A DNA stretch of 64,000 bases from NCBI GenBank assembly GCA_964016885.1, contig OZ024743.1, forward strand, positions 160,394,001 to 160,458,000, read 5' to 3'. The notes beneath the pieces were generated by a model that was not told where the DNA came from, searched no databases, and saw nothing but the letters and a program-made list of their open reading frames with translations. This document shows, piece after piece, positions 35,846 to 64,000 of this stretch (positions are counted from its first letter, which is position 1; each line of letters begins with the position of its first letter). Position numbers and translations under genes: made by a program. This DNA comes from Eledone cirrhosa (Eukaryota).

Positions 35846-35879
35846 TAACATACAGCGGCATCTGCTTGGTGGTCAAAGT

Positions 35880-37345
35880 TAATAGCCCCCTCTCAGAACC
35901 GTTTCAGATCTCCAGATCGGTCCGTTAAGGGTGCCTTCTCTGCTTCCTCCTGTACGTATTGACTCTTGAGCCTTTATTGCGGAAACTGTTGCGGGGCAAC
36001 CCGCTCGAACCGGGACGCGGAAAGGCTGTGTCCGTTTAGGCGGACGACATCACCGTGATGGTGTCGGGAACCTCGGAAATTGTCGTGATCGGCACCTTAT
36101 TGGAGGAATATCAAAGGTTGACGGGAGCGAAACTTCACCAGGAAAAGTCGGCGGGCCTGCAGCACCTGGAGAGGCAGTTGTATTCCATCCAATAGCGTTG
36201 TTGGGCGCTGGATGGACGGGCTGGTATCAGGCGATCCATCTGCTGCCATTACTCTCTATGCGGAGGGCTAGGCATGCAGCGGCTAATCAAACGCAAACAT
36301 GGGCTGAGGCAGTGGCATCTCCAGATATACTGCCTACACAGTGAACAGGTGTGGTTACCGTTTGTCAGACGGGCCTTTTCGTAGCTCGTCTCTTTGACTG
36401 TGTCACAGTCCTGGGTCAAGAAAAGACTGAGACTGGTTGATTGGCATCTGGAATGTTGCCAGGCACTCACTGTTCTCTACCAGGAAGGCAATGTGATCAG
36501 TGGAACTTCCATTCTCGAGTTCTATTGAGGAGTAAAGTTGGGCAAGTGCCACGACGCACTCGGAGAGGCTCTGGGTGTCGACGAAGTCGAACTAGGCACT
36601 TTTTTTCGGGGGACTTTCGAGCCGGGGACGATGGATAACTTCCAGAAATCCTTTGCTTGGCAGTGTTACTGATGGACACTGCCGGTTCGTGATAAACTCT
36701 ACAGGCACGGAAGTGCTGTCAGACGGACCTGCCGAGATGTGCGCAAAGCGACGAAACCGTTCTGCACGCATTTATCCAGGGTCCGTGTATTACTGACATG
36801 TGGAGTTTCGTTGAACAGTTGTTGTCGCGTGTAGAACAGCAATTTTCCTGTCTGGCGGCAGTAGCGAAAGAGGTTGTATGGTGGACCAGGTTGAAAGGAC
36901 TGTAAACAGACACTTTTCTCTTCAGCCAATGCCTCGTTAACGTTTCCGAATTTTACTTGGAAAGGAAGGTGAGGGTGAAGAGCGAAGTGCTTCCCCCACC
37001 CCTACCCCCAGTATTTCTGCTAAGAGGTGGGTGAATGTAGCGAGAATGGTCCTTGTGAGTGGGACTACTATGATCATACGCCTGTAGGCTGGTGAATTTG
37101 AGGAAGAGAGGTGTGCCCTTTCCGGGTGTCCTCAAATCGTCGGATGGTTCAGGATTGGTGGGGTACCTGAGTCAACCCTGGGTGGTTCCCCCCCCTATTG
37201 AGGAACTTCTGTTGTTATTCATTTTCTTGTTTATTGTTATTGTTTTCATATTTATTTACTCGATTTTTGTGTAAAACACCCGCTGTCCCCGTCTATTATA
37301 TTGTCCCCTATATGTCGGCCTTTGTGGCCAATAAAGGAAATTACT
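35880..37345 (+). mobile_element. L1/Tx1-type LINE, 5'-truncated degenerate copy E
   Basis: Remnants of ADDITV, MDNFQKSFAWQCY and LPVRDKLYRHG..CPRCAQSDETVLH. 3' end GGCCTTTGTGGCCAATAAAGGAAA followed by (TTA)n. Confidence 0.88.
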
Positions 37346-37373
37346 ATTATTATCATTATTATTATTATTATAA

Positions 37374-37563
37374 GGGTGGTGGATTGGCAGTATCGGTAGA
37401 GGGTCGGACTCCATGCTTTCCAGCATAGTTACGTCTCTTTACGATCTGAGTTCAAGTCCCGCCGAGGTTAACTTTGCCTTTCATCCTTACGGGGTCGATA
37501 AAATAAAGTACCAGTAATGAACTGGGTAATTGCTGGCCTTGTGCCTAAAGTAGAAACAATTAT
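37374..37563 (+). mobile_element. tRNA-derived SINE directly after the (TTA)n tail of Tx1 copy E
   Basis: Full head, core and tail. Confidence 0.92.
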
Positions 37564-37576
37564 CATTATTATTATT

Positions 37577-49479: not shown

Positions 49480-50500
49480 GGAGGGGAGAAAGTGAAACCA
49501 ATATTACATTCGGATCTGCTTTACTTAACAAATACATGAGAACAAAAAATTCAATAAAATATATTGCCAAAGGTGCAAACTTTGAAATATAAATCGAAAA
49601 TTACACAGCAGAAACAAAAAAGAGTAGCAAACATATTAGGAAACAAATATAATAATAATAATTAACTCCAAACACTGCTACAAACTGTACACGGATTCAC
49701 AAAATAAATACACATGAAATTTGGATTAGAAAAATGAGCCAAGGCAATATCATGTTAGATAAAGAAACAGAAATAAGAGAACTAGATCAAACTCAGGCAT
49801 ACAAATACTGAGGAATCAAGGGACTAGATAAGATACAACATACACAGATGAAAGAAAAGATTAGAAAAGAATACTACAGGAGAATTAGATTAATACTCAA
49901 AACTGAACTAAATGCAAAGAATAAGGTGATTGGCATCCACACTTTAGCAGTCACAGCAATGAGCTACAGCTTTAACATTTAGGTATGATAGTGTTGGGAC
50001 CTTCATACCCTAGAAGTTATGCCAGCATTATGAAATACAAACAGCAAAAATATGGTACAAACACACACCAGAAAAGGTCTCAGAGAATGACAAAGCAACC
50101 ACTCTCTGGAATATGTTAATACATCAAAGCCAACAGACCAGATATTATTTTAAATGCTTTCTAATAGAAGTATCAATCGCCACAGATAACAATATATCTT
50201 CCAAGGAAATAGAGTAACTCTCTATCTAGAGATTTAAAAAAATGGAAAATGAAGACAGAAACAATAACTATAATAATAGGTGCTCTAGGAATGATAAAAC
50301 AAACAGACACAGACAAATACTTAGCCCAAACCCCAGGACTTACAAATATATAGAGTACACAAAACATAGCACTACTAGGCACTGCATACATATGACGAAA
50401 AGTGATATCAATACAATAGAAACAACATCAGCAAAAACTACACTACTCATACAAAAGGCGCACAGAGTTGTGCTCAATAAAAATAATCATGGAAATAACA
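49480..50500 (+). mobile_element. Second R4/Dong-type family, degenerate RT/RLE 3' portion
   Basis: MKFGLEK, AYKY.GI, MKEKIRKEYYRRIRLILKTELNAKNKVIGI.TLAV, then RLE remnants. Ends in AAT repeats. Confidence 0.8.
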
Positions 50501-50523
50501 ATGATAATGATAATAATAACACC

Positions 50524-51070
50524 TAGCCGAGACTCACAATAAAGGATGGAGACACGATATAATAGAAAAAGTGGCATTTATGCAAACTAAATAATTCACC
50601 ACATTCTGAAAAGTGGTATGAGCATAAGCCGGAGTGGGTGATAGCAAACGATCGAGTGAAGGTGCTATTGGATTTCAGGATACAGAGAGACAAGAAATTA
50701 GAACACAATAGGCCTGACCAGGTGGATTTTGACAAGGAAAAAAGATCGTGTCTGATTTAGACACAAGATTGCAAGAAAAGGAGGAGAAAATTAACCGATT
50801 CCAGGATGTAAAGTGGGAATAAAAAAAGGATTTTGGACTGTCATGAGATCAAGGCCATCCCGATTGTCATGGGAGCAGTAACTACTATCTCGAAGAGTTT
50901 TCAAGGATCGTTAAAAAACATTAGTCCAGCCCCTTTTCTGGAACACTTCAAAAGGCATGCTTGCTGGGAACAGCAAGAACTCTCCGATACGTCCTGAATA
51001 TCTGAGGCTGCAGCTAGCGGCTTGATGTTCATTTGAACAAACTTTTCAGTTAAATAACATCAATGATTCT
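50524..51070 (+). mobile_element. Dong-type 3' fragment of the 54716 family, between (AAT)n tracts
   Basis: [33 protein letters not shown] and [15 protein letters not shown] match 56215-56707. Confidence 0.92.
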
Positions 51071-51088
51071 AATAATAGTAATAATAAT

Positions 51089-54000
51089 GGTTTCTTTATT
51101 GGCCACAAGGGTTAACATGAAGAACGGATCAGGACGATACAAAGTGGGTTTTGGCCGTGTAAAATGGTTATAACAAGAAGATAAAAATGTGTAAAAACAA
51201 ATAAAAAATTCAAACAAAAGTTCCCTAACAGGGGGGGGGGGGACTTCCGAGGGTCACACGTGGCGAAAACCACACAAAGGACCACGGTCACACTGACCAC
51301 CAGGGTAAGCGCCCTCTCTCAGTTCTCCCACTCCTCAGTCTACAGGCGCATACTCAGAGCGACCCCGTTTATTCGGACCAGACTCGCCACTTTCACCCAC
51401 CTTTCAACAAACTTACCTGATTTTCCTCTTAAGTGAAATTTGAAAATGTTAATCAGGGATTGGCCGGAGAGGAAACGAGTCCGTCTTCAATCCTTTCAAC
51501 CATGTCTACCATAAACTCTCTTTCGCCATGGCCACCAGGCAGATGAAAACTCCCTGCCCTTCCTCTTCCTTAAAGGAGGACGGCCGGGCTATCTGCACAA
51601 AGGACTCAGTCGATAACCGTATCCGTCCTAAACGTGACAGCAACTGTTCGACATTGCCCACAAGTCAGCAATCGTCGGGCACTGAACGAGTGCGTGCACA
51701 ACGGTTTCGTCGCCCTGCACGCATCTCGGACAGGTTCGGCTGACGGCACTCCTTTGCCTGTAGAGCTTATCTCGAACTGGCAACACTCCCCGGAGGCACT
51801 GCCAGGCCAAGCATTTCTGGAATTTGTCCATAGGCCCCGGGCTGAAATTTCTCTTGAAGAGAGCAAACAGCTGATTGTCTTCGACACCCAGGGTCTCCTC
51901 GAGAACGTCGTTGCACTTCCCATCCACTAGCCCTCTATAGAACGCCGAGGTGGATGTTCCACCGATATCAGTGCCCAGCTGGTAGAGGGTGGTGAGCGCT
52001 TGGAGATATTCCAGCTTCCAAGCGCTATCACTCAGTCTTTTACGGATGCAGGACTGCAGCTCCGTTAATAAGCCGAGCAGGGGAAAAACACGTCTGACAA
52101 ACGGCGACGACACCTGTTCACCATCAAGGAAGCACCAAAGATGTTACAGCCTGAGCGCATGTTTGCGCATCATCAACCAGGGCATGCCCACTCCTCCACG
52201 CAGCGGGTGCTGACAAATGGACCGTCTGACCATGGGAGCACGGCCCTTCCACAAAAAGCGGAAGCGAAGGTGATCTATTTTGATCAGAGTTGGGCGAGGG
52301 CAAGGTACGACGGTCAGGTGGTAGCAGATGACGGACGCGATGTACGCATTTGCCACCTCCGCCCGACCTTTCAGTGATAGTCTCTTCTCGGCCCATTTCC
52401 GGGTAGAGATGCCACCCTGCTCGTCACCTCGCTCCAGTTTTTCACATCTGGAAGTCCGGACCGAACCAGATCCCGAGCAATTTAACCGGTCCTTCCGTCC
52501 AGCGCCCCACGACGCTGTCGGACGGCATGTACTTGCCTCTCATGGTACCGAGTTACAAGCCCACTGACTTTTCCTGGTTTGTCTTTGCTACTGTCACCGC
52601 TTCGTATTCCTTGAGAGAGGTAGACGTGTTTGGTGCTTGACACCACCACGGTGACGTCGTCGGCGTAAGCTGACACTGATCTCCCGCATCCCAGTTCGCG
52701 TGGGACCCCGCCTCATCGTCTCCAATTCGTGCAGTATCGGCTCGAATGCCAATACGTACAAGAGGGACGAGATGGGACAACCCCGGCGGACCGAGCGCAT
52801 GATGCTGAACGGCTGCGACAAGTGAACATTTACCATCACAATCGAGCAGATATTGCTGTGCATTGCAGCGATCCAGCCCCTAAAAACTGGCCCATTGTGG
52901 TGTGGTTGCTGGTGTTGATGCTTGTGGTGGTGTTGCTGCAAATCACCTTGCAGCCTTTACCCCTCTTTCTTTGCTTTCGCTTTTGGAGGAAGAAACTGTG
53001 GTGTTTTTGCGTCTGTATTTTTTTTTTTTTGACAACCGTTTCCCACTCCTCTGTCGCCTCATACTCCATGTCCAACTGTGAGAGGTCGGGGAGCGGTATG
53101 AGTTTTACCCTCTCATTTGTCTTTGTTGTTGCTGTAGGTGGTGGTGGTGGTGGACCCTGGTCTGCCGTTCTTGGCACGGGTGCAACTAGTGCAACTGTTT
53201 CTGTTGCTGCAGTTGCCGCTGATGTTTTTATTGTCCGTGGCTTTGGTGTGAGTGCCACGGACGTTCTCCTCCTACTCCCTGTAGAAGCTCCCTACTTTTA
53301 CGCTGACTGCTCTGTTTCTGATGGCAGCGGTTTCGACGTTGGAAGGAGAGGGACCTTCGCCTTTGTTATTTTCTGTGAGCAGAAGGTCCTGAGGTGAGAC
53401 TTTGGGCGCCTTCCTACCACATATATGGGAAGTTGGGAGCCATTCCCGTGGTCTATTATGTCGGGAATATCGCTGATGCAGTCCTGGTCGGTTTGGATGA
53501 GCATCTCTATTCCAATACCGGACCAGTCCTCTCTCCCCAACTTCTAAACCTGCAGAATGGTTATTCTATCCTCGATGCCCGCAAGAACAGACACGACAAG
53601 CCAAGGCACGTGTACGTAGGGTGGGACCGGGTTACCCTGACCTTTGCAATTTTTCCCGCAGTAAAACGGGACTAATTTTATGTCATCATTTCGTAGGGTC
53701 CTCATTGAGTGTGATTTTGCTTCCTGGGTGGTAGCAAAAAGGACGTCCATGGTAGCACACCTCTTGTCTCGGGTGATGTGGGTTTTCCGTGCTCACACAG
53801 TTCCCAAGGCCTTCTGGACTTGGGCCTCTGTGGCTCTCTCCACACAGCGTGATTTCGTGGCAATTGTTCGGTATGACATTGTGGGTCGCTCTTGTTCCTC
53901 CAGGAAGTCGGCTAGTGGGTTCAAGGACACTGAAAATTCAGTTCTGGTTGCCATGTGTCTTGCAACCGCCATCTCCTCCTCTGTGATCAGGACTGTTTCT

Positions 54001-54666
54001 ACGTTGCGAGCCACCTTTGCAAAAGAGATGGTCTTTTTTTTATTGGCATCATTGTTGCCGCAGATACTGCTGCTACTGGTCTTGTTGGTGCTGTTGCTAC
54101 TGCTACAAACGGTGTTGTTGGTGTTGTTGCTGTTATCACTGTTGCAGTTGGTTGTATTTTTGGTGCCGCCGTTGCTGTTGTTCTCGGTGCAGTTTGTATT
54201 GTTGCTGTTGGTGTTGTCGTTGTTCATTTTCTTGTTAGTGGTGTTAATATCGTTGTTGCATTTGTTGTCATTTTGTCTGTTGTCTGTATTGGTTGTCGCT
54301 GTTGCTGTTGTGATTGGTGTGGTCATTTTTTTCAAAATTAGTGTTCTCAATATCGTTGTCATTGTTGTCTTTGTTCACGTTGTTTGTGGTGGTGTTTGTT
54401 GTATCAATTTCTGTGTTCGCTGTACGCCATTGTCATACGACAGCAGACATATCCCGGGGGGGGGGGGGGGCTCAGCCATGATGTTTTGTTTCTTTTTTAT
54501 AATTTTTAACTGTAAAAAGTTTAAATATTTCGTCCAAAAGGCCCTTCACAGGGCAAAGTCCAAGGGCTTATGTCCCTTACACGACAACAAAAATTTACAG
54601 TAAATGATTTATAACAGGTAAATAAAGAGACTTACGGCAGCGAGCGAAAAGACGTCCGATCAGGCC
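51089..54666 (-). mobile_element. L1/Tx1-type LINE copy B; both ends present, endonuclease and N-half of RT deleted
   Basis: ORF1 from ATG ~54479 (MAEP) through 53298. Fusion near 52895 into GPVFRGWIAAM, then SAYADDVT and CPRCVQGDETVVHALVQC. Flanked by (AAT)n. Confidence 0.92.
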
Positions 54667-54675
54667 AATAATAAT

Positions 54676-54717
<42 letters not shown>
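54667..54717. repeat. (AAT)n tract at the Tx1 5' / Dong 5' junction
   Basis: Direct reading. Confidence 0.95.
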
Positions 54718-54719
<2 letters not shown>

Positions 54720-56707
54720 AAGACCGAATCAAGGGTAATGATGTTACCAACTATAGACCTATCACATGTCTGCCCGTAATGTGGAAACTGTTGACGAGCA
54801 TTGTGTCTGAGGAAATCTACCATCACCTCCACACAAACAACTTGTTGCCGGACGAACAGAAAGGATGCCGAAAGAAGTCACGTGGTACAAAGGACCAGTT
54901 GCTTATTGATAAGATGGTAATGGGGAATTGCAGGAGGAGACACACTGATCTTGCCATGGGATGGATAGACTACAGAAAGGCATTTGACATGGTGCCTCAT
55001 TCCTGGATCACCAAAAGCCTGGAGATCTTCAGGGTGGCAGATAACATCAGAGAGTTGCTGGGCAGGAGTATGGGGTCCTGGGAGACAGAGTTGACATCAA
55101 CTGGAGTATCCTTGGGAAGCGTGAAGATCAAGAGAGGTATCTTCCAGGGAGATAGCCTGTCCCCTCTGTTGTTTGTCCTTGCCCTGATGCCCTTGACCAT
55201 TATGCTGCGAAAAGTGAGAGCAGGATACAAGTTGGGAAGGGGAGAGCTTACCATCAATCACCTCCTCTTCATGGACGATCTTAAGCTCTTCGGGAAAAGT
55301 GAGAGGGAGTTGGATGTGCTTGTTGACACTGTCCGTATTTTCAGCAGTGATATATGTATGCAGTTTGGTATTGGTAAATGTGGAGTCATTGTGATGAGGA
55401 GGGGTAGGTTGAGCAGAAGTAACGGGATCCAGATACCAACAGGTGAGATGATAAAGGAAATTGACTCTGAGGAAGGATACAAGTATTTGGGCGTTCTGGA
55501 GGCTGATGGCATAAAGAACAAAAAAATGAAGGAATTGTTAAGAACTGAATACATTCGGAGAGTAAGGAGCGTATTGAAGTCACATCTGAACAGCAGAAAT
55601 GCCATAAGCGCAGTAAATTCCCGAGCTGTGTCTATTATTAGGTACAGTGCGGGAATTCTGAGATGGAATGTTGCTGAACAAAAAGAAATGGATAGGAAGA
55701 CTAGGAAGCTATTGACTATCTACAACATGTTCCACAAGAGGAGTGATGTCGATAGACTCTACCTAAGGAGATCTGAGGGTGGAAGAGGTCTTATCAGCAT
55801 AGAGGACTGTGTTCAGATGGAGAAAAACAACCTATACAAATACGTGACCTATAGTAAGGAGCCAATGCTCAGAGCTGTACTGAAGGAGGGGAGAGTAGGC
55901 CAGGGGATACCCAAGGAGGAAATAACATCAAGGAGGAAGAGCAGCCTTAAGGGAAAATCCCTTCATAGTACCTTCTTTGAGAAAACTGAATTTAGAGATC
56001 CACAGACATGGAACTGGTTGAGAAGAGGAGACCTCAAAAAGGCTACAGAAGGAATGCTAATGGCTGCGCAGGAGCAGGCCCTCAAAACGAAGTGGTTGAA
56101 GCACCATATCTACAAGGAGGAGGCTAGCCCACTGTGCAGGATCTGTGGAGAGAGAGAGGAGACTGTGGCTCACATTGTGTCCGAGTGTAAACACCTAGCC
56201 CAGACCCACTATAAGGGCTGGAGACACGATGTGATGGGCAGGGTGATCCACTGGCACCTGTGCAAAGTAAACAATCTACCACATTCTGAGAAATGGTATG
56301 AGCATAGGCCAGAGGCGGTGATGGAGAACAGTCAGGTGAAGGTGCTGTGGGATTTTAGGATACAGACGGACAAAAAACTGGAACACAATAGACCTGACCT
56401 GGTGGTTGTGGACAAAGAAAAAAGATCGTGCCTGATTGTGGATGTGGCCTGCCCGTTCGACACGAGAGTGCAAGAGAAGGAGAGGGAGAAAATTAACCGA
56501 TACCAGGACCTAAAGTGGGAGGTGAAAAGGATTTGGAACTGCCATGAAGTCAAAGTGATCCCGATTGTCATAGGCGCACTGGGGACTATCTCCAAAGGTT
56601 TCCAGGGATGGTTAAAGAAAATCGGCCCCTTCACGCTTTTTGGAACGCTTCAAAAGGCATGCTTGCTTGGAACGGCAAGAACCCTCCGATACGTCCTGAA
56701 TATCTGA
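54716..56707 (+). CDS. R4/Dong-clade non-LTR retrotransposon protein (RT + CCHC knuckle + restriction-like endonuclease), 5'-truncated but uninterrupted, 663 aa
   Basis: [93 protein letters not shown]. The element ends near 56781 in (AAT)n. Confidence 0.95.
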
Positions 56708-57087
56708 GGCTGCAGGTAGTGGCTTGATATTCAATCCAACGGACTTTCCAGTTAACCAACATCAATGACTGAGATTCAAGGAATAACAATAATAATAATA
56801 ATAATAATGATTTCTTTATTGGCCACAAGGGCTGACATCAAGAAAAACATCACAGACGGAACAGGACGGTACAATGTGGGTTTTGTGCGTGTAAATATTT
56901 TTATTATTTATATAAGAAAAGAAGAAAAAAAAGGACATAGAAACATATATATATATAAGCAATAAAAATGAAAATTGAAACAATGAAAAATTCCCCAATA
57001 GGGGGGGGGGGGGGAACCTCCGAGGGTTACTAGTGGCGAAAACCACACAAAAGACCACGGCCACTCTCAATTTTTCCATTTCTCAAA

Positions 57088-60028
57088 CTACAGACGTATA
57101 TTCACTCGGACCATTCTCGCTACATTCACCCACCTTTCAACAAACTTGCTAGAAGGAAGCACTTGCCTCTCCACCCTGATTTTCCTCTTCGAGTGAAACT
57201 TGAAAAAGTTAATCAGGGACTGGCCGGAGAGGAAAGTCTTCAACCCTTTTAACCTTGTCCACCACACAATCTCTTTCGCTATAGCAACCAGGCAGATGAA
57301 AATCGCCTGCCCTTCCTCCTCGAAGGAAGACGGTGAGACCATCTGCACAATGGACTCAGTCGACATCCGGATCAGTCCTACACGCGACAGCAACTGTTCG
57401 ACATAGCTCCACAAGTCTGAACGAGTGCGTGCACGACGGTTTCGTCGCTCTGCGCGCATCTCGGACAGGCTCGGCTGACGGCACTTCCGTGCCTGTAGAG
57501 CTTATCTCGAACCGGCAGCGCTCCCCGGTAGCACTGCAAGGCCAGGGATTTTTGGAAGTTATCCATAGGCCCCGGGCTGAAAGTTCTCCGGAAGAGAGCA
57601 AACAGCTGATCTTCTTCGACGTCCAGGATCTCTCCAAGAATGTCGTCGCTCTTCCCCTCCACTAGTCCTCTATAGAACGCCGAGGTGGATGTTGCACCAA
57701 TACTGGTGGCCAGCTGGCAGAGGGCAGTGAGTGCATGGAGACATTCCAGTTTCCAAGCGCTATCCCTCGATCTTTTTCTCACCCAGGACTGCAGCTCCGT
57801 CAAGGAGACGAGCTGTGGGAAAACATGCCTGGCGAACGGCGACCACACCTGTTCACCATCAAGGAAGCACCAGAGATGTCGCAGCCTCAGCGTATGTTTG
57901 CATCATCAGCCATGGCGTGCCCAGTCCTCCACGCAACGGGTATTGAGAGCAGATGGATCACCTGACCATGGGAGCGTGTCCCTTCGACAAAAAGCGGAAG
58001 AGGAGGCGCTCCATTTTGGTGAGAGTTGTGCTGGAGCAAGGGACGATGGTGAGGCGGTAGCAGATGACGGATGCGATGTACGCATTCGCCACCTGCGCCC
58101 GGCCTTTCAGGGACAGCTTCCTCTCGGCCCATTTCTGGGTGAGGGAGGCCACCCTGCTCGTCACCTCTTTCAAGTTTTTTCTCCATCTGGAGGTCCGGTC
58201 CGAACCAGACCCCGAGCAATTTAACCGGTGTCCGCCCTACGCCCCACAGCGCTGCCGGACGGCATGGACTTGCCTCTCAAGGTGCCGAGCTGCAAGCCCA
58301 CCGATTTTTCCTGGTCTATCTTTGCTCCTGTCACCACTTCGTATTCCTTGAGAGCGGTGCCGAGCATGTGGACGTGTCTGATGCTCGACACCACCACGGT
58401 GACGTCGTCAGCGTAAGCCGACTCGGATTTCCCGCATCCTAGTTCGCGTGGGACGCCCCTCATCGCTCCCAGTTTGTGCAGTAACGGCTCGAGAGCCAAT
58501 ACGTACAAGAGGGACGAGAGGGGACTACCGTGGCGGACTGAGCGCATGATGCTGAACGGCTGCGACAGGTGACCGTTCACCCTCACAACTGAGCAGATGT
58601 CGCTGTACATTGCTGCGATCCAACCCCTGAAAACGGGCCCAAAACCGGCTGCCTCGAGGACCGCCACCAGGTACCGATGGTCGACCCTATCGAATGCTTT
58701 GGATTGATTCAAATTGATCAGGGCCCCACCCGTGCCAGGCTCCTTAACCACTCTCTCTATGATGTATCGCATGAGGTGGAGGCTGTCTTTTATGGATCTG
58801 TCCGGAATGGCGTCTGTCTGCGCATCTCTCACTAGACCCCTGACGACAAGCGCCAACCTCGTTGCTAACACCTTGGCCAAAATCTTGAACTCTGCGTTTA
58901 GCAGGGTTATAGGCCTGAAATTATCGATAACATCCCCCTTGTTCGGGTCTTTTCTCAGCAGCGCCACTGCTCCCCGGCTCACAAAACTGGAAATGCTCCC
59001 GTTCTGCTGCCATTTGCAGTAGACGTCTGCCAAGAGGTCACCAAACAAGTCTGGCATAAATGCATAAAGCTCGTAGGGCCGACCATCCAAACCTGGCGAT
59101 TTACCCCTTGTGCAGTTAGCCATCGCTTCCCGTATTTCACCGGCTGTTATTGGCTTTTCGCAACACTGTGCTGCGGTCGTCGAGAGCCGAGGCAGTCCGT
59201 CGAGGTATGCACTGAAGTCCATGCCTTGATCCGGGCCGCCGCCGCTCCCGAATATTTCAGTAAAATGCTGCTGAAAAGCCTCACACATCCGCTCGAGTTC
59301 GAGCATCACGCACCCGTTTTAGTCAGACAAAGACCGAATTGTGGCTTTGTTGCCACGTCTGCCTCTTCCACCTGGGCCCATTGGACGGCTTTTGTGGACA
59401 ACTTATACTAGCCTTATCTAGTTCTCTGCAGAATATCCATCCTATCGAGATACGATCTGGATGACCCGATGCGGTTTGTCCATGTCCACATTGGCACATT
59501 CAGGTGATCCAGTCGATACCTGTCAGACACTTCAAAACGTCTTGCACCCACCTCCCCTATCCACTACCCCCACACAATCCCAGCGTTCATCCAAGATACC
59601 GTTCCAGTCGCCCACTAACACTAAAGAGCGGGACGTTCCAAGAAAGGTCTCTAGACGTTTGAAGAAATCTGGCCGTCCTGCCCCTGTTTGGGCGTAGACG
59701 GCTACTAGCCTGAAAGCATTGCCTTCGCTGCCAGTCACGTCCAGCACCCCCGACTTACCTTCTGGGTCTAGGAAGATGGCCGTATCGCGAGATCCAAGCC
59801 TCTCCGAAAAAGGGCGGCAAAACCTTCCCCCGATCCTGGACGGCTGGGAGATGCGTATACATCGTAGCCGCCGAAGATCGGTGCGAAGGCTTGTGCTTCG
59901 GAGATTCTGGTTTCACTGATGGCCACCACATCTATGTTTAGTGACCCGAGGTTGTTGAGCAGGTGACCCTGCTTCCAAGATGACCCTAGGCCACGTGCAT
60001 TTATACTGCCTATTCTGAGTACGGCCAT
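57088..60028 (-). pseudogene. Tx1 ORF2: APE endonuclease + RT + C-terminal zinc-binding domain, frameshifted and partly deleted
   Basis: MAVLRIGSINARGL..ISETR, LVAVYA, LVGDWN, GKSPGLDG, NFRPITLLNAEFKILAK, KAFDRVDH, SAYADDVT, CPRCAQSDETVVHAL. Confidence 0.93.
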
Positions 60029-60630
60029 GCTGGATGAGAAACGGGGCAAGTGAGAAAGGTCACTAACCTTGATCGTGTGGTGAAGGGACAGTAGAACCGT
60101 CCATTTCGCTGGTCATGGGTATTTCCAAGAGGTTGTCAGTGTATATCCTCTTTGTAACCGACCCTCTGAAGTCTCCAACTGCGTTGGGGAATTTTTGTTT
60201 TAAAGGTTTGTACTGTTCTATTGAGACTTCGAAGATGCTTATGTTTGTCGGGAGAGTTCTTGGTGTTGGTGGGGTGTAGTAGTTTTTTTTCTGTGACGTC
60301 TGTGTGCTGCTTTATATATTGTATGAGTTCTTTTTTTGCCATGTTTATGGCTGTGAACATTTTGGGGGGAGGGGTGATTTTGTTGCTGTTTTCTTCTTGT
60401 TGCTGTTTGGTGTGTGTATCTTGTGTTTGCGTTGTTGGTGTTTTGGGTGATGCTGGTGGTGGTGTGGTTGTTGTTGTCAGTGGTGCTTGTGGTGGTGATG
60501 GTGGTGAGGGTGGTGGTGTTGCTGCAAGTTTCCTTGCTGCCTTTACCCCTCTTTGTATGCCTTCGCTTTTGGAGGGTGAATCTAAGGGTTTTTTTCTTTT
60601 TTGTTTTTTTGTAGCAGACCGTTTGCCACG

Positions 60631-62172
60631 TCACTCCCGCCTCAAACTCCATGTCGGATTCTGTGGCGTCTGGGAGTGATATGCGCTCCAGGGCTGTTGG
60701 TGGGGGTAGTGGAGCCCTCTTCGGCAATTTGTTGCTGGTGTAGCTACTTCAAATGTAGCTATTGGTGTTGCCGCCACTGACGATGATGCTTTAGTTATCC
60801 GTGGCCTTGGTACGAGTGCTACGGACGTTGCCCTCCTACTCACCGTGGAAGGGGCTTCTTCGTTTGTTTCCTGCCCTGCTCTTGGTAGTAGCGGACCAGG
60901 TATTGGAAGGAGAGGGGCCTTCTTCGCTGTCTTTTTCGGGCAAAAGGCCCTGAGGTGACCCTTCGACCCACAGAGATAACATTTTGGCCGTCTTCCTTCT
61001 ACACTTATAGGGAGTTGGAGTCCTTCCTCGATGTCTATGATATCGGGGATAGCGTGGATACATTCCTGGTCAGTTTGTATAAGCATTTGCATGCCTATAC
61101 CTGACCAGTTCTCTCTCCCTATTTTTTTTACTTGCAGCATGGTCGTCCTGTTCTCGATTCCAGCAAGGACAGACGCGGCCAACCAAGGTATGGGCACGTC
61201 GGGTGGGACCTATGTCACTTTGACGCTCACAATTTTCTGCCCGTAGTAGGAGGGCACCAAGACTATCTCCTCACTCTTTAGGGTTTCCAAAGAGTGAGAC
61301 TTTGCTTCCCGGGGGGTGCCGAAATGTACGTCTACTGTGGCGTACTTTCTGCTCCGGGTGATGTGGATTTTGCGTGCCCAGACGCACCCCAAGGCCTTTG
61401 GGATTTGAGCCTCCTTGGCTCTCTCCACCCGATGTGAGATTTTGCTTACGGTGCGGTAAGTCACCGTCTGTAGCTGCTGGTCCTTGAAAAAATCGGGTGG
61501 AGGTTTCAGGGAGACTCTATTGGCGCTTCTTGTCACCATGGCTGATGCGACTGCCATCTCCTCCTCTGTGACTAACACTGTCTCGATATTTCGGGCGACA
61601 CCTGCAAAAGAAGTGGTCCCTTTTTCAGCAGCACCACTATTGCTGCCGCTACTGGTCTTACTGGTGGTGCTGAGATCGCTATTACAGGTATCGGTGTCAT
61701 TGTTGTTCTTTTCGCTGGTACAGTTGTTGGGGTTGTTTTCGTTGATACTGTTGCTGTTGTTACTGTTATTGTGGGTGTTGTTATTATTGTTGTTTTTGTT
61801 GATACTGTTCCTACTATTATTGTTGTTGTGGCTGTTGTTATTGTCATTGTTATTGTCGTTCTCGACCTTACTGCTGTTATTTTTGTTGTTGCTGTTGTTG
61901 TTGCTGTTGTTATTGAAGGTGTTGTTGTTGGTGTTGTTGTTGGTGTTATTGTTGGTGTTGTTTGTGTTAGAAATATTTGTTAATTTTAAATCTGTAACAA
62001 TCTTCTTTTCCTTTGTAATATTTTCGTTTATATTTACCTCCGCTCGAACGCTATCTTGTTGACATGCTGATAAAGTCTCCCTCTCTCTGTGTTGTCTGAC
62101 AGCGCTCTCTCTCTTTCTTGTGTTATCAATGTTGAAATTTAAAAAAAAGATATGTTTACACGAATACGACAC
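60631..62172 (-). pseudogene. Tx1 ORF1 (Asn-rich N-terminus, conserved core, CCHC knuckle) with a premature TAG at 61210
   Basis: ORFs 61210-62172 and 60631-61197 are in the same frame. Contains VEGRRPKCYLCGSKGHLRAFCP. Confidence 0.88.
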
Positions 62173-62360
62173 CCCGTAAAGGGGTGCCGTATTATTTACG
62201 AGTGAACTCCTATATTAGGTGGGTCACTTCTTCTAAACTTTTATCAAATTTAAAACTTGAATAAAAGGTTTAGAACGGTTGAAAACGAGGTAAAACGTTG
62301 AAAAAAACTGGAGGCGGTAAGAAGCGTGGCTTCACCAACAATAGTAATAATAATAATAAT

Positions 62361-64000
62361 GCTTTCTTTATTAACCACAAGGGTTTACATAAAGTAGACA
62401 TTAAGGACAGTACAGGACAATACAGGACGGTACAAATGGGCATTTCTGCGTGTAAAAACAAAAAAAAACAGAGGATGTAACAAAAAAATAACAATGAAAA
62501 ACTCACAAATAGGGGGGAGACTTCCGAGGGACATTTGTGGAGAAAGCCCATTAAAAGGCTAGAGTGACGCTGACCACCAGGGCAAGTGTCCTCTCCCAGT
62601 TTTCACCTTTAATTTACAGACACATACTCAGAGTAGGCCCATTCACTTGGGCCATTCTTGCTTCTCTCACCCATCTTTCAACAAAATGCTGGGAAGAGAG
62701 CACTTCCCTCTCTACCCTGATTTTCCTTTTCAAAAGAAACTGGAAAAAGTTAATCAGGGCATCACCGAAGAGGTAAGTGCTCGTCTTCAGTCCTTTCAAA
62801 CGCGTCCACCATACTATCTCTTTCGCCATGGCCACCAGACAGATAAAAACTGCCCTTCCTCGCTAAAGGAAGAGGGTGGGGCAATCCTCACGATGGACTC
62901 AGCTGATAGTCGGATCCGTTCTACATGCTACAGCAGGTGTTCGACATAAACCCACAAGTCAGCAATGCTCGGACACTGGACGAGTGCAAGCAGGACGGCT
63001 TCGTCGCTCTGCGCGCATCTCGGACATTCCCGGCTGACGGCACCTCCATGTCTGTAGAGTTTATCCCGAACTGGCAAAGCTCCTCGGTAGCACTGCCAGG
63101 CCAGGGATTTCTGGAAGTTGTCCATAGGTCCCGGCCCGAAAGTTCTTCCGAAGAGATTGGCTAGTTGATTTTAGTCGACGCCTAGAGTTTCCCCAAGTAC
63201 GTCGTCGCTCTTCCCCTCCACTAATCCTCTATAGAACGCCAAGGTGGAGTTTCCACCGATCACATTGCCCGATTGGTCGAGGGCTGTGAGCGCCTGAAGA
63301 CATTCCAGTCTCCAAGTGCTCCCTCTCGGTCTTCGTTTGACCCAGGACTGCAGCTCCGTCAAGGAGATGAGCTAGGGAAAGACGCGTCTAACAAACGGCG
63401 ACCACACCTGATCACCGTCGAGGAAGAGGTGGAGATGTCGTAGCCTGAGTGCGTCTGCGCATCATTAGCCACGGCATGCCCAGCCCTCTACGTAGCGGGT
63501 GTTGACAGCAGATGGACCGCCTGACCATCGGAGCGCGTCCCTTCCACAAAAAGCAAAAGACCAAACGCTCCCGCGCAGTCAGGCGAGGCTTAGGACAAAG
63601 CACGACGGTCAGGCGGTAGTAGATGACGGACGCGATGTACGCGTTAGCCACCTCCGCTCGACCTGTCAGGGATAGCTTCCTCTCCGCCGATTTATGGGTG
63701 AGAGAAGCCACCCTGCTCGTCACCTCGTCCCAGTTTTTGTCAGTCTGGAGGTCCGGACCGAACCAGACCCCTAACAATTTAACTGGTCTGTCCGTCCAGC
63801 GCCCGACGACGCCGTTGGGCGGCATGGACCTGCCTCTCCAGGTGCCGAGCTGCAGGCCCACCGACTTTTCTTGGTTGATCATTGCTCCTGTCACCGCTTC
63901 ATATTCTCTTAGTGTAGTGCCGATCGCCTCCATGTGTTTGGCGTACGACACCACTACGGTGACATTGTCCGCATATGCTGACACGGACCTTCCGCATCCT
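62361..64000 (-). mobile_element. L1/Tx1-type LINE copy D, 3' part (runs off the window)
   Basis: SAYADNVT, VKLLGVWFGPDL, MDNFQKSLAWQCYRGALPVRDKL, KEIVWWTRLKG. 3' end CCCTTGTGGTTAATAAAGAAAGC(ATT)n. Confidence 0.93.

Follow-up and report, generated by a model that had tools for sequence, protein, structure and literature searches.

Microsatellite targeting is established in the Tx1 clade of retrotransposons that lack long terminal repeats (non-LTR elements), where Kibi and Koshi of teleost fish insert into (TC)n and (TTC)n, respectively, and crocodilian families use (TTCC)n and (TTTC)n (PMC4494074, PMC3812793), while Dong elements target TAA repeats (PMC3812793). L1-Tx1 and Dong-R4 elements have expanded in coleoids (PMC8967140), and in Octopus vulgaris the recently active elements include 13 L1-Tx1 families with 421 insertions and 5 Dong-R4 families with 1129 insertions (PMC13282606, Table 1). 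Head-to-tail stacks of non-LTR elements are formed by HeT-A, TART and TAHRE in Drosophila (PMC6719617), and tandem SINEU-3 copies sandwich a duplication (PMC4494074). Here we describe a stack of Tx1-like long interspersed elements (LINEs) and antiparallel Dong-type elements, joined by (AAT)n tracts that read (TTA)n on the opposite strand, in a stretch of 64,000 nucleotides from Eledone cirrhosa (assembly GCA_964016885.1, contig OZ024743.1, positions 160,394,001 to 160,458,000, forward strand; hereafter the window). The stack was probably built by Tx1-like copies entering (TTA)n through nicks of their apurinic/apyrimidinic-type endonuclease (APE) at a motif that the copies themselves recreate, with Dong nicking the opposite strand.

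Three diverged minus-strand copies, B, C and D, make up the body of the stack (Table 1). As in the initial annotation they are of Tx1 type, and since they are only 67-81% identical to each other, they are not recent tandem duplications of one another. The four (AAT)n tracts were likewise borne out, and chance is ruled out for them: across 390 kb sampled evenly from the genome, a random position has a TTA run of at least 8 nt ending there in 0.18% of cases. The annotated bounding of every copy by (AAT)n holds on both sides of B and C, but the 5' end of D, located beyond the window edge in locus L130, adjoins a clipped short interspersed element (SINE) without a TTA tract. Similarly, Dong elements on the plus strand are indeed present in the B-C linker and as two old fragments beyond B, but the C-D linker is empty of Dong. 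Compared to other copies in the fetched loci, the Dong of the B-C linker reaches 99.7% identity, C and D about 94%, and B at most 85-87%, making the young Dong most likely the last arrival. Contigs from four sequencing runs skip repeats, so none spans the AAT linkers; those of one run, which may be the source sample, match low-depth pieces of copy B exactly, one of them crossing the internal deletion of B. The array is genuine, and represents one instance of a genome-wide pattern.

The family behind the stack amounts to thousands of copies in a genome of 3.0 Gb, and includes a young subfamily with intact open reading frames (ORFs). Exact matches number 1313 for a 32-mer of the C-type 3' end and 2619 for a 56-mer of a second, young-type 3' end, and in an even genome sample of 390 kb the Tx1-type family occupies about 6% and Dong-type elements about 5%. 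The young subfamily was recovered by protein search; ORF2 is open over about 1200 codons in 12 fetched copies, 11 of which are 97-99.8% identical to the remaining one. The layout is that of the L1 group, with two ORFs and an ORF2 composed of an N-terminal APE, a reverse transcriptase (RT) and a C-terminal zinc motif, recognised in the young form as APE, RT and zf-RVT domains. The APE catalytic residues of the intact subfamily align with those of human L1 ORF2, which is also the best PDB match of ORF2 (residues 69-919). A CCHC zinc knuckle in ORF1 is a feature of the Tx1 clade; a zf-CCHC match is present in ORF1 of copy C under the curated cut-off, the pattern CX2CX4HX4C is visible in young ORF1, and a sister lineage, to which we return below, matches zf-CCHC above the cut-off. 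Among named proteins the closest comes from Argonauta hians (71%), the ESM Atlas returned unnamed RT clusters only, and no relatives of the family were found in viral contigs. The young sequence is also present in sequencing runs with ten organism labels from nine studies (word share at least 0.34), and the contigs of four runs cover most of it; in other organisms the contigs end at the repeats. None of the runs listed with the young sequence is of RNA, which speaks neither for nor against expression. Near-identical ORF2s carry several different 5' halves, and at least four different modules of 5' untranslated region and ORF1 are found on closely related ORF2s, with a recurrent switch point just before ORF2 (L311, L312, L322, L338, L345, L130). 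The 1350 exact young 5' ends, set beside the 2619 exact 3' ends, indicate unusually many full-length copies, although the two patterns may cover different subfamilies.

We then tabulated the sequences flanking the 5' ends, for which the initial annotation predicted (TTA)n. Young full-length 5' ends are preceded by TTATTATT in 1327 of 1350 exact, unranked matches (98%), and other 5' flanks are correspondingly rare. At least three repeat units are found directly upstream of the C-type and B-type 5' ends in 30/30 and 28/30 best hits, respectively, and of 56 of the 58 older 5' ends with the window copies excluded, while a tract is found at either end of each of the 12 intact young copies. Thus, with a tract upstream of full-length 5' ends throughout the genome, the repeat is not merely a 3' tail. 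The 5' tract nevertheless appears to be partly RNA-borne. One variant 5' tract is common to L161 and L167 on different chromosomes, and C-type copies share GTT or GGTT immediately before the element start, which suggests that the full-length RNA starts inside the upstream tract. To the extent that this holds, full-length copies on their own overstate targeting.

Truncated junctions cannot bring a 5' tract, and therefore the tracts found there count for targeting. For the C type, the set comprised the 39 3' ends with the best scores and 48 that follow one another, with one C locus omitted; to these were added 36 3' ends of the young type for which no 5' match was listed. Of the junctions, 85 were inside the element and in view, and a tract was called where TTA extended over at least 8 nt there. 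Such a tract is carried by 23 of the 85, about 150 times the background of 0.18%. A further five have a tract within 25 nt and three sit in TTG, TTC or TAC tracts, whereas 14 were labelled as having an antisense Dong neighbour (two being in reality mislabelled Tx1 3' ends), three adjoin a clipped sense partner, nine are chimeras with another subfamily, and one is a SINE insertion. Targeting of (TTA)n is consequently graded, not strict, with copies also occasionally present in TTC tracts (L315, L319) and TAC tracts likewise occupied. Target-site duplications of about 17-21 bp accompany the LINE at L220, where the duplication starts in a tract and runs into a SINE head, and at L210, a clean case at a non-repeat site; a target preference and a target-site duplication, both traits of the Tx1 clade, are hence present in the family. 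Among 140 loci scanned, none held a full-length copy whose tracts lie within a duplication. Two further observations concern these junctions. Truncated Tx1 copies are joined head-to-head to truncated Dong elements without a tract at several loci (L113, L126, L194, L198, L311, L327, L328, L335), suggesting deletions at 5' junctions during insertion, and near the B-type 5' end at L073 a copy lies beside an opposite-polarity tract of another Tx1-like 3' end, possibly from a family with an (AAT)n tail.

The orientation of the neighbours is equally informative. Next to the 3' ends of 84 copies, Dong was antisense 21 times and never sense, Tx1 was sense 29 times and antisense once, SINEs were sense nine times and antisense twice, and unique sequence was found in 22 cases; 76 of the 84 have 3' tails of 12 nt or longer. 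The placement of Dong in the same tracts and in the opposite orientation, as annotated initially, is therefore supported without exception (21/21), and given this strict polarity the simplest interpretation is that the Tx1 and Dong enzymes nick opposite strands. The plus-strand elements encode an RT closest to R2-type proteins, followed by a CCHC motif and a PD-(D/E)xK-type end (motifs read by eye). With RT, CCHC, restriction-like endonuclease (RLE) and a TAA target they resemble known Dong, with nothing new in Dong itself; we name them from this architecture and target rather than from an aligned Dong or R4 reference. On the sense strand, a (TAA)n tail is present at nearly all of 47 listed Dong-type 3' ends, and some of the 5' ends that are truncated also have a tract. 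Two Dong-type families, about 42% identical at the protein level, coexist, and the second (L320, L322) likewise runs antiparallel within these tracts. That Dong is mobilised together with Tx1 was considered and rejected, as Dong lengths and identities vary between loci.

Further light on the target comes from a candidate partner SINE of 190 bp, the terminal hairpin of which has the CTTGT loop of the LINE. In nine rows chosen by eye, the SINE-LINE hairpin has four pairs, with 78% of the cells paired and two-sided changes at three pairs. Duplications of 11-22 bp surround 12 of the 26 SINE copies in the 390 kb of evenly spaced genome, an unbiased sample; nine of the 12 begin with ATTAT, and the seven non-repeat duplications are all preceded by C or T. 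Provided that the LINE moves the SINE, the cut motif is likely Y/ATTAT (the slash marking the cut), of which (TTA)n represents a dense array. Tract use at 8 nt does not differ significantly between LINE (9/34) and SINE (3/26; p 0.2). No tRNA gene to which the head of the SINE could be assigned was called in the window, and at 35851-37564 an older plus-strand Tx1 copy is followed head-to-tail by the SINE, with ATT linkers.

As a second determinant, insertions prefer sites behind a kin 3' end. In counts drawn from listed coordinates and fetched loci, 38 of 58 full-length 5' ends are directly behind a Tx1 or SINE 3' end, compared to a background of 5 in 23 tracts (Fisher p 5e-4), and on one chromosome arm 6 of 55 young 5' ends are at most 100 bp behind an exact young 3' end. 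The other 20 of the 58 lie in a tract without an upstream kin 3' end, with unique sequence in 13 cases, Dong bodies in six and one other. The self-extending, head-to-tail stacking of the initial annotation is supported. A short fixed 5' tag acquired from the upstream copy was not seen, the upstream pieces measuring from about 300 to more than 1100 bp. Separately, tandem runs of near-identical young copies exist (L161, L330, L331; G000 C1, about 55.42-55.45 Mb), some with identical variant linkers, which could be due to repeated insertion or unequal exchange.

In the sister lineage, the loci of one cluster (L346-L385, for example L350 and L354) form pure head-to-tail arrays with a period of 6.4-6.8 kb and the same hairpin. 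Here, another copy comes immediately after 47 of the 48 3' ends and (ATT)3 after none of the 48, truncated newcomers are preceded by a duplication of about 17 nt, and no tRNA, Rfam RNA or repeat linker was found in the arrays. Judged from these junctions, the lineage apparently inserts at its own 3' end, and part of the arrays could have grown by tandem duplication. The contigs are filed under a bacterial genome assembly, yet judging by content they seem to be contaminating host DNA. A tendency towards self-stacking is common to the family and its sister lineage.

How may these patterns be generated? In the mechanism that we propose, the APE would nick the A-rich strand at a short motif, Y/ATTAT on the top strand, which the tail of each copy would recreate, and the nicked 3' end would anneal to the AUU tail of the RNA and prime reverse transcription. 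A (TTA)n tract would then be a hot spot, with the motif on offer every 3 bp. Full-length RNA starting within the upstream tract would bring and anneal a 5' tract, which would explain why full-length copies are flanked in 98% of cases and truncated ones are often tract-less. Every insertion would turn one tract into two, and Dong, nicking the opposite strand of the same repeats, would land antiparallel. We judge this account of the stack probable, but several points speak against it. The C-type and B-type 5' ends were the 30 best-scoring hits each, not random copies; 27 of the 85 truncated junctions are without tract, duplication or recognised partner; and only two clear LINE duplications were found among the 140 loci, where many 3' partners are displaced by later insertions. 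In addition, the SINE has a 5' tract of at least 9 nt in only 2 of 26 copies, its mobilisation by the LINE is suggested by a short shared hairpin in nine hand-picked sequences, and it could be annealing to the RNA tail, and not the enzyme, that selects ATTAT.

The stacking behind kin and the arrays of the sister RT lineage would also be compatible with a protein that primarily recognises the kin 3' end in DNA (hairpin region, AATAAA) and inserts behind it, leaving (TTA)n mostly to tails, duplications and slippage. We regard this as unlikely, considering the 20 of 58 copies in tracts lacking such an end, the use of plain ATTAT sites by the SINE and the small background set (n=23). That specificity is instead strict, and all non-repeat junctions are later deletions, would agree with the near-complete flanking of young full-length copies, with the common large internal deletions, and with the many tract-less junctions that adjoin clipped bodies of Dong, SINE or Tx1 elements at places where a linker is expected. 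This is very unlikely, however, as L210 has its clean duplication at a non-repeat site, TTC and TAC tracts are used, SINE sites are mostly non-repeat, and among 20 copies selected for having a 5' end only two have lost the 3' end, far below the frequency of tract-less 5' junctions. At the other extreme, RNA carrying (TTA)n at both ends might enter loosely AT-rich sites without targeting, with stacks arising from tandem duplication, recombination, survival in tolerant regions or misassembly. The variant tract of L161 and L167, and the variant linkers shared by near-identical neighbours (L161, L330, L331) as unequal exchange would give, fit such a scenario, but the tract enrichment at truncated junctions, the different ages of the window neighbours, the strict polarity and the lack of full-length copies with duplications outside tracts in the scanned loci leave it scarcely credible. 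The initial annotation of an APE-type, (TTA)n-specific Tx1 family hence stands insofar as the family is APE-type, Tx1-like and flanked by (TTA)n on both sides genome-wide, but 'specific' is too strict in view of the truncated junctions, L210, the ATTAT sites of the SINE, the seemingly in part RNA-borne tract and the kin 3' ends.

How does the family relate to described elements? In a quick RT tree of 61 rows, without rows for vertebrate L1, Tx1L, Kibi or Koshi, it forms its own branch (Shimodaira-Hasegawa-like approximate likelihood-ratio test 100) within a group (94) that holds elements flanked by U2 and U1 as well as one protein with the name TX1. Its sisters are 13 unnamed proteins (40-45% identity), outside an adjacent group with two U2-flanked elements and one U1-flanked element. 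Pairwise, the Keno-type ORF2 scores 477 bits over the whole ORF2 (31% identity) and human L1 ORF2 181 bits in a different program, so that the scores favour the Keno type over L1. Keno-type elements (L224, L227) have the same ORF2 layout and also an ORF1 CCHC knuckle, although weakly alignable, but they occupy a separate branch of the tree and target U2 small nuclear RNA (snRNA), unlike the family here. In metagenome contigs, Tx1-like ORF2s are followed by U2 (L224, 4675-4885; L227, 5815-5977) or U1 snRNA (L229, 9202-9356), representing Keno-type elements and a possible U1-associated element.

Kibi, Koshi and the crocodilian families are likewise APE-type with a microsatellite preference, and the present family lies above the 20% of flanks set there as a working rule (PMC4494074, PMC3812793). 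It is set apart from the TC and TTC targets of Kibi and Koshi by its TTA target, and further by sharing the target with an RLE element, by a likely partner SINE exposing a short motif and by a strong tendency to stack behind kin ends. It probably belongs to the annotated octopus L1-Tx1 families; in the available part of that annotation (PMC13282606), the words 'target' and 'nested' occur 0 times and no target analysis is seen. A TTA-targeting Tx1 element was not found in the literature searched, including the available parts of PMC4494074, PMC3812793, PMC13282606, PMC4640811, PMC3747384, PMC4758252, PMC9115989, PMC8967140 and PMC6719617, though a Repbase or Dfam entry or the labelled Tx1 tree of PMC4494074 may hold one. 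In contrast to HeT-A, TART and TAHRE, the stacks here are interstitial and dispersed, and a telomeric role is not indicated. Additional Tx1 and Dong fragments are present at 236-2066 of the window.

Table 1. Components of the stack, and a SINE elsewhere in the window that bears on the mechanism (window coordinates).
Feature	Position	Strand	Basis
(AAT)4 tract, outer edge of stack	49651..49662	+	
Old decayed Dong/R4-type fragment, second Dong family, ends approximate	49670..50451	+	tblastn, tblastx vs Dong proteins
Old 5'-truncated Dong/R4-type 3' fragment, 76% to young Dong, tail-to-tail with copy B	50518..51066	+	
(AAT)n linker, tail common to old Dong and copy B	51070..51088	.	
Tx1-type copy B, oldest; both ends kept; endonuclease and front of RT removed by internal deletion near 52894	51089..54666	-	
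(AAT)n linker, flanks B at its 5' end and young Dong at its 5' junction	54667..54717	.	
Young Dong/R4-type element, truncated at 5' end; RT, CCHC and PD-(D/E)xK-type C-terminus in an open frame; 99.7% to another genomic copy	54718..56781	+	
(AAT)n linker, tail common to Dong and copy C	56782..56808	.	
Tx1-type copy C, almost full length; CCHC knuckle in ORF1; APE, RT and zf-RVT in ORF2; stops, frameshifts, 417 bp deletion near 59392	56809..62336	-	
3' terminal hairpin (CTTGT loop) and AATAAA of copy C; hairpin common to SINE and sister lineage	56809..56840	-	
(AAT)n linker, flanks C at its 5' end and forms the tail of D	62337..62360	.	
Tx1-type copy D, 3' part; 93-94% to young intact subfamily; runs about 2.9 kb past window	62361..64000	-	
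SINE sharing Tx1 3' hairpin, head-to-tail behind older Tx1 copy 35851-37345; outside stack	37370..37564	+	

TTA appears to be a new target for the Tx1 clade, in which microsatellite targeting as such was already known from Kibi and Koshi, and the exposure of the likely cut motif through a SINE is unusual. On a broader scale, it is conceivable, if doubtful, that an ancestral insertion at the own 3' end became microsatellite targeting in octopods, and that the family makes much of the genomic (TTA)n, obtains from the upstream copy a 5' tract and perhaps also a promoter, and feeds an unrelated RLE element that cuts the opposite strand. An upstream promoter is also the arrangement of HeT-A. If true, this would show how self-targeting can turn into microsatellite targeting, and reveal a loop of two enzymes building a sizeable part of a 3 Gb genome. 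Long TTA tracts touch an element end in 8 of 17 cases in the 390 kb sample, and together with the shares of the sample held by the Tx1-type and Dong-type elements, this suggests that the loop may help to explain octopod repeat growth. With intact copies at 99% identity and a self-stacking sister lineage, the family offers material for studying how the target choice of APE-type elements evolves.

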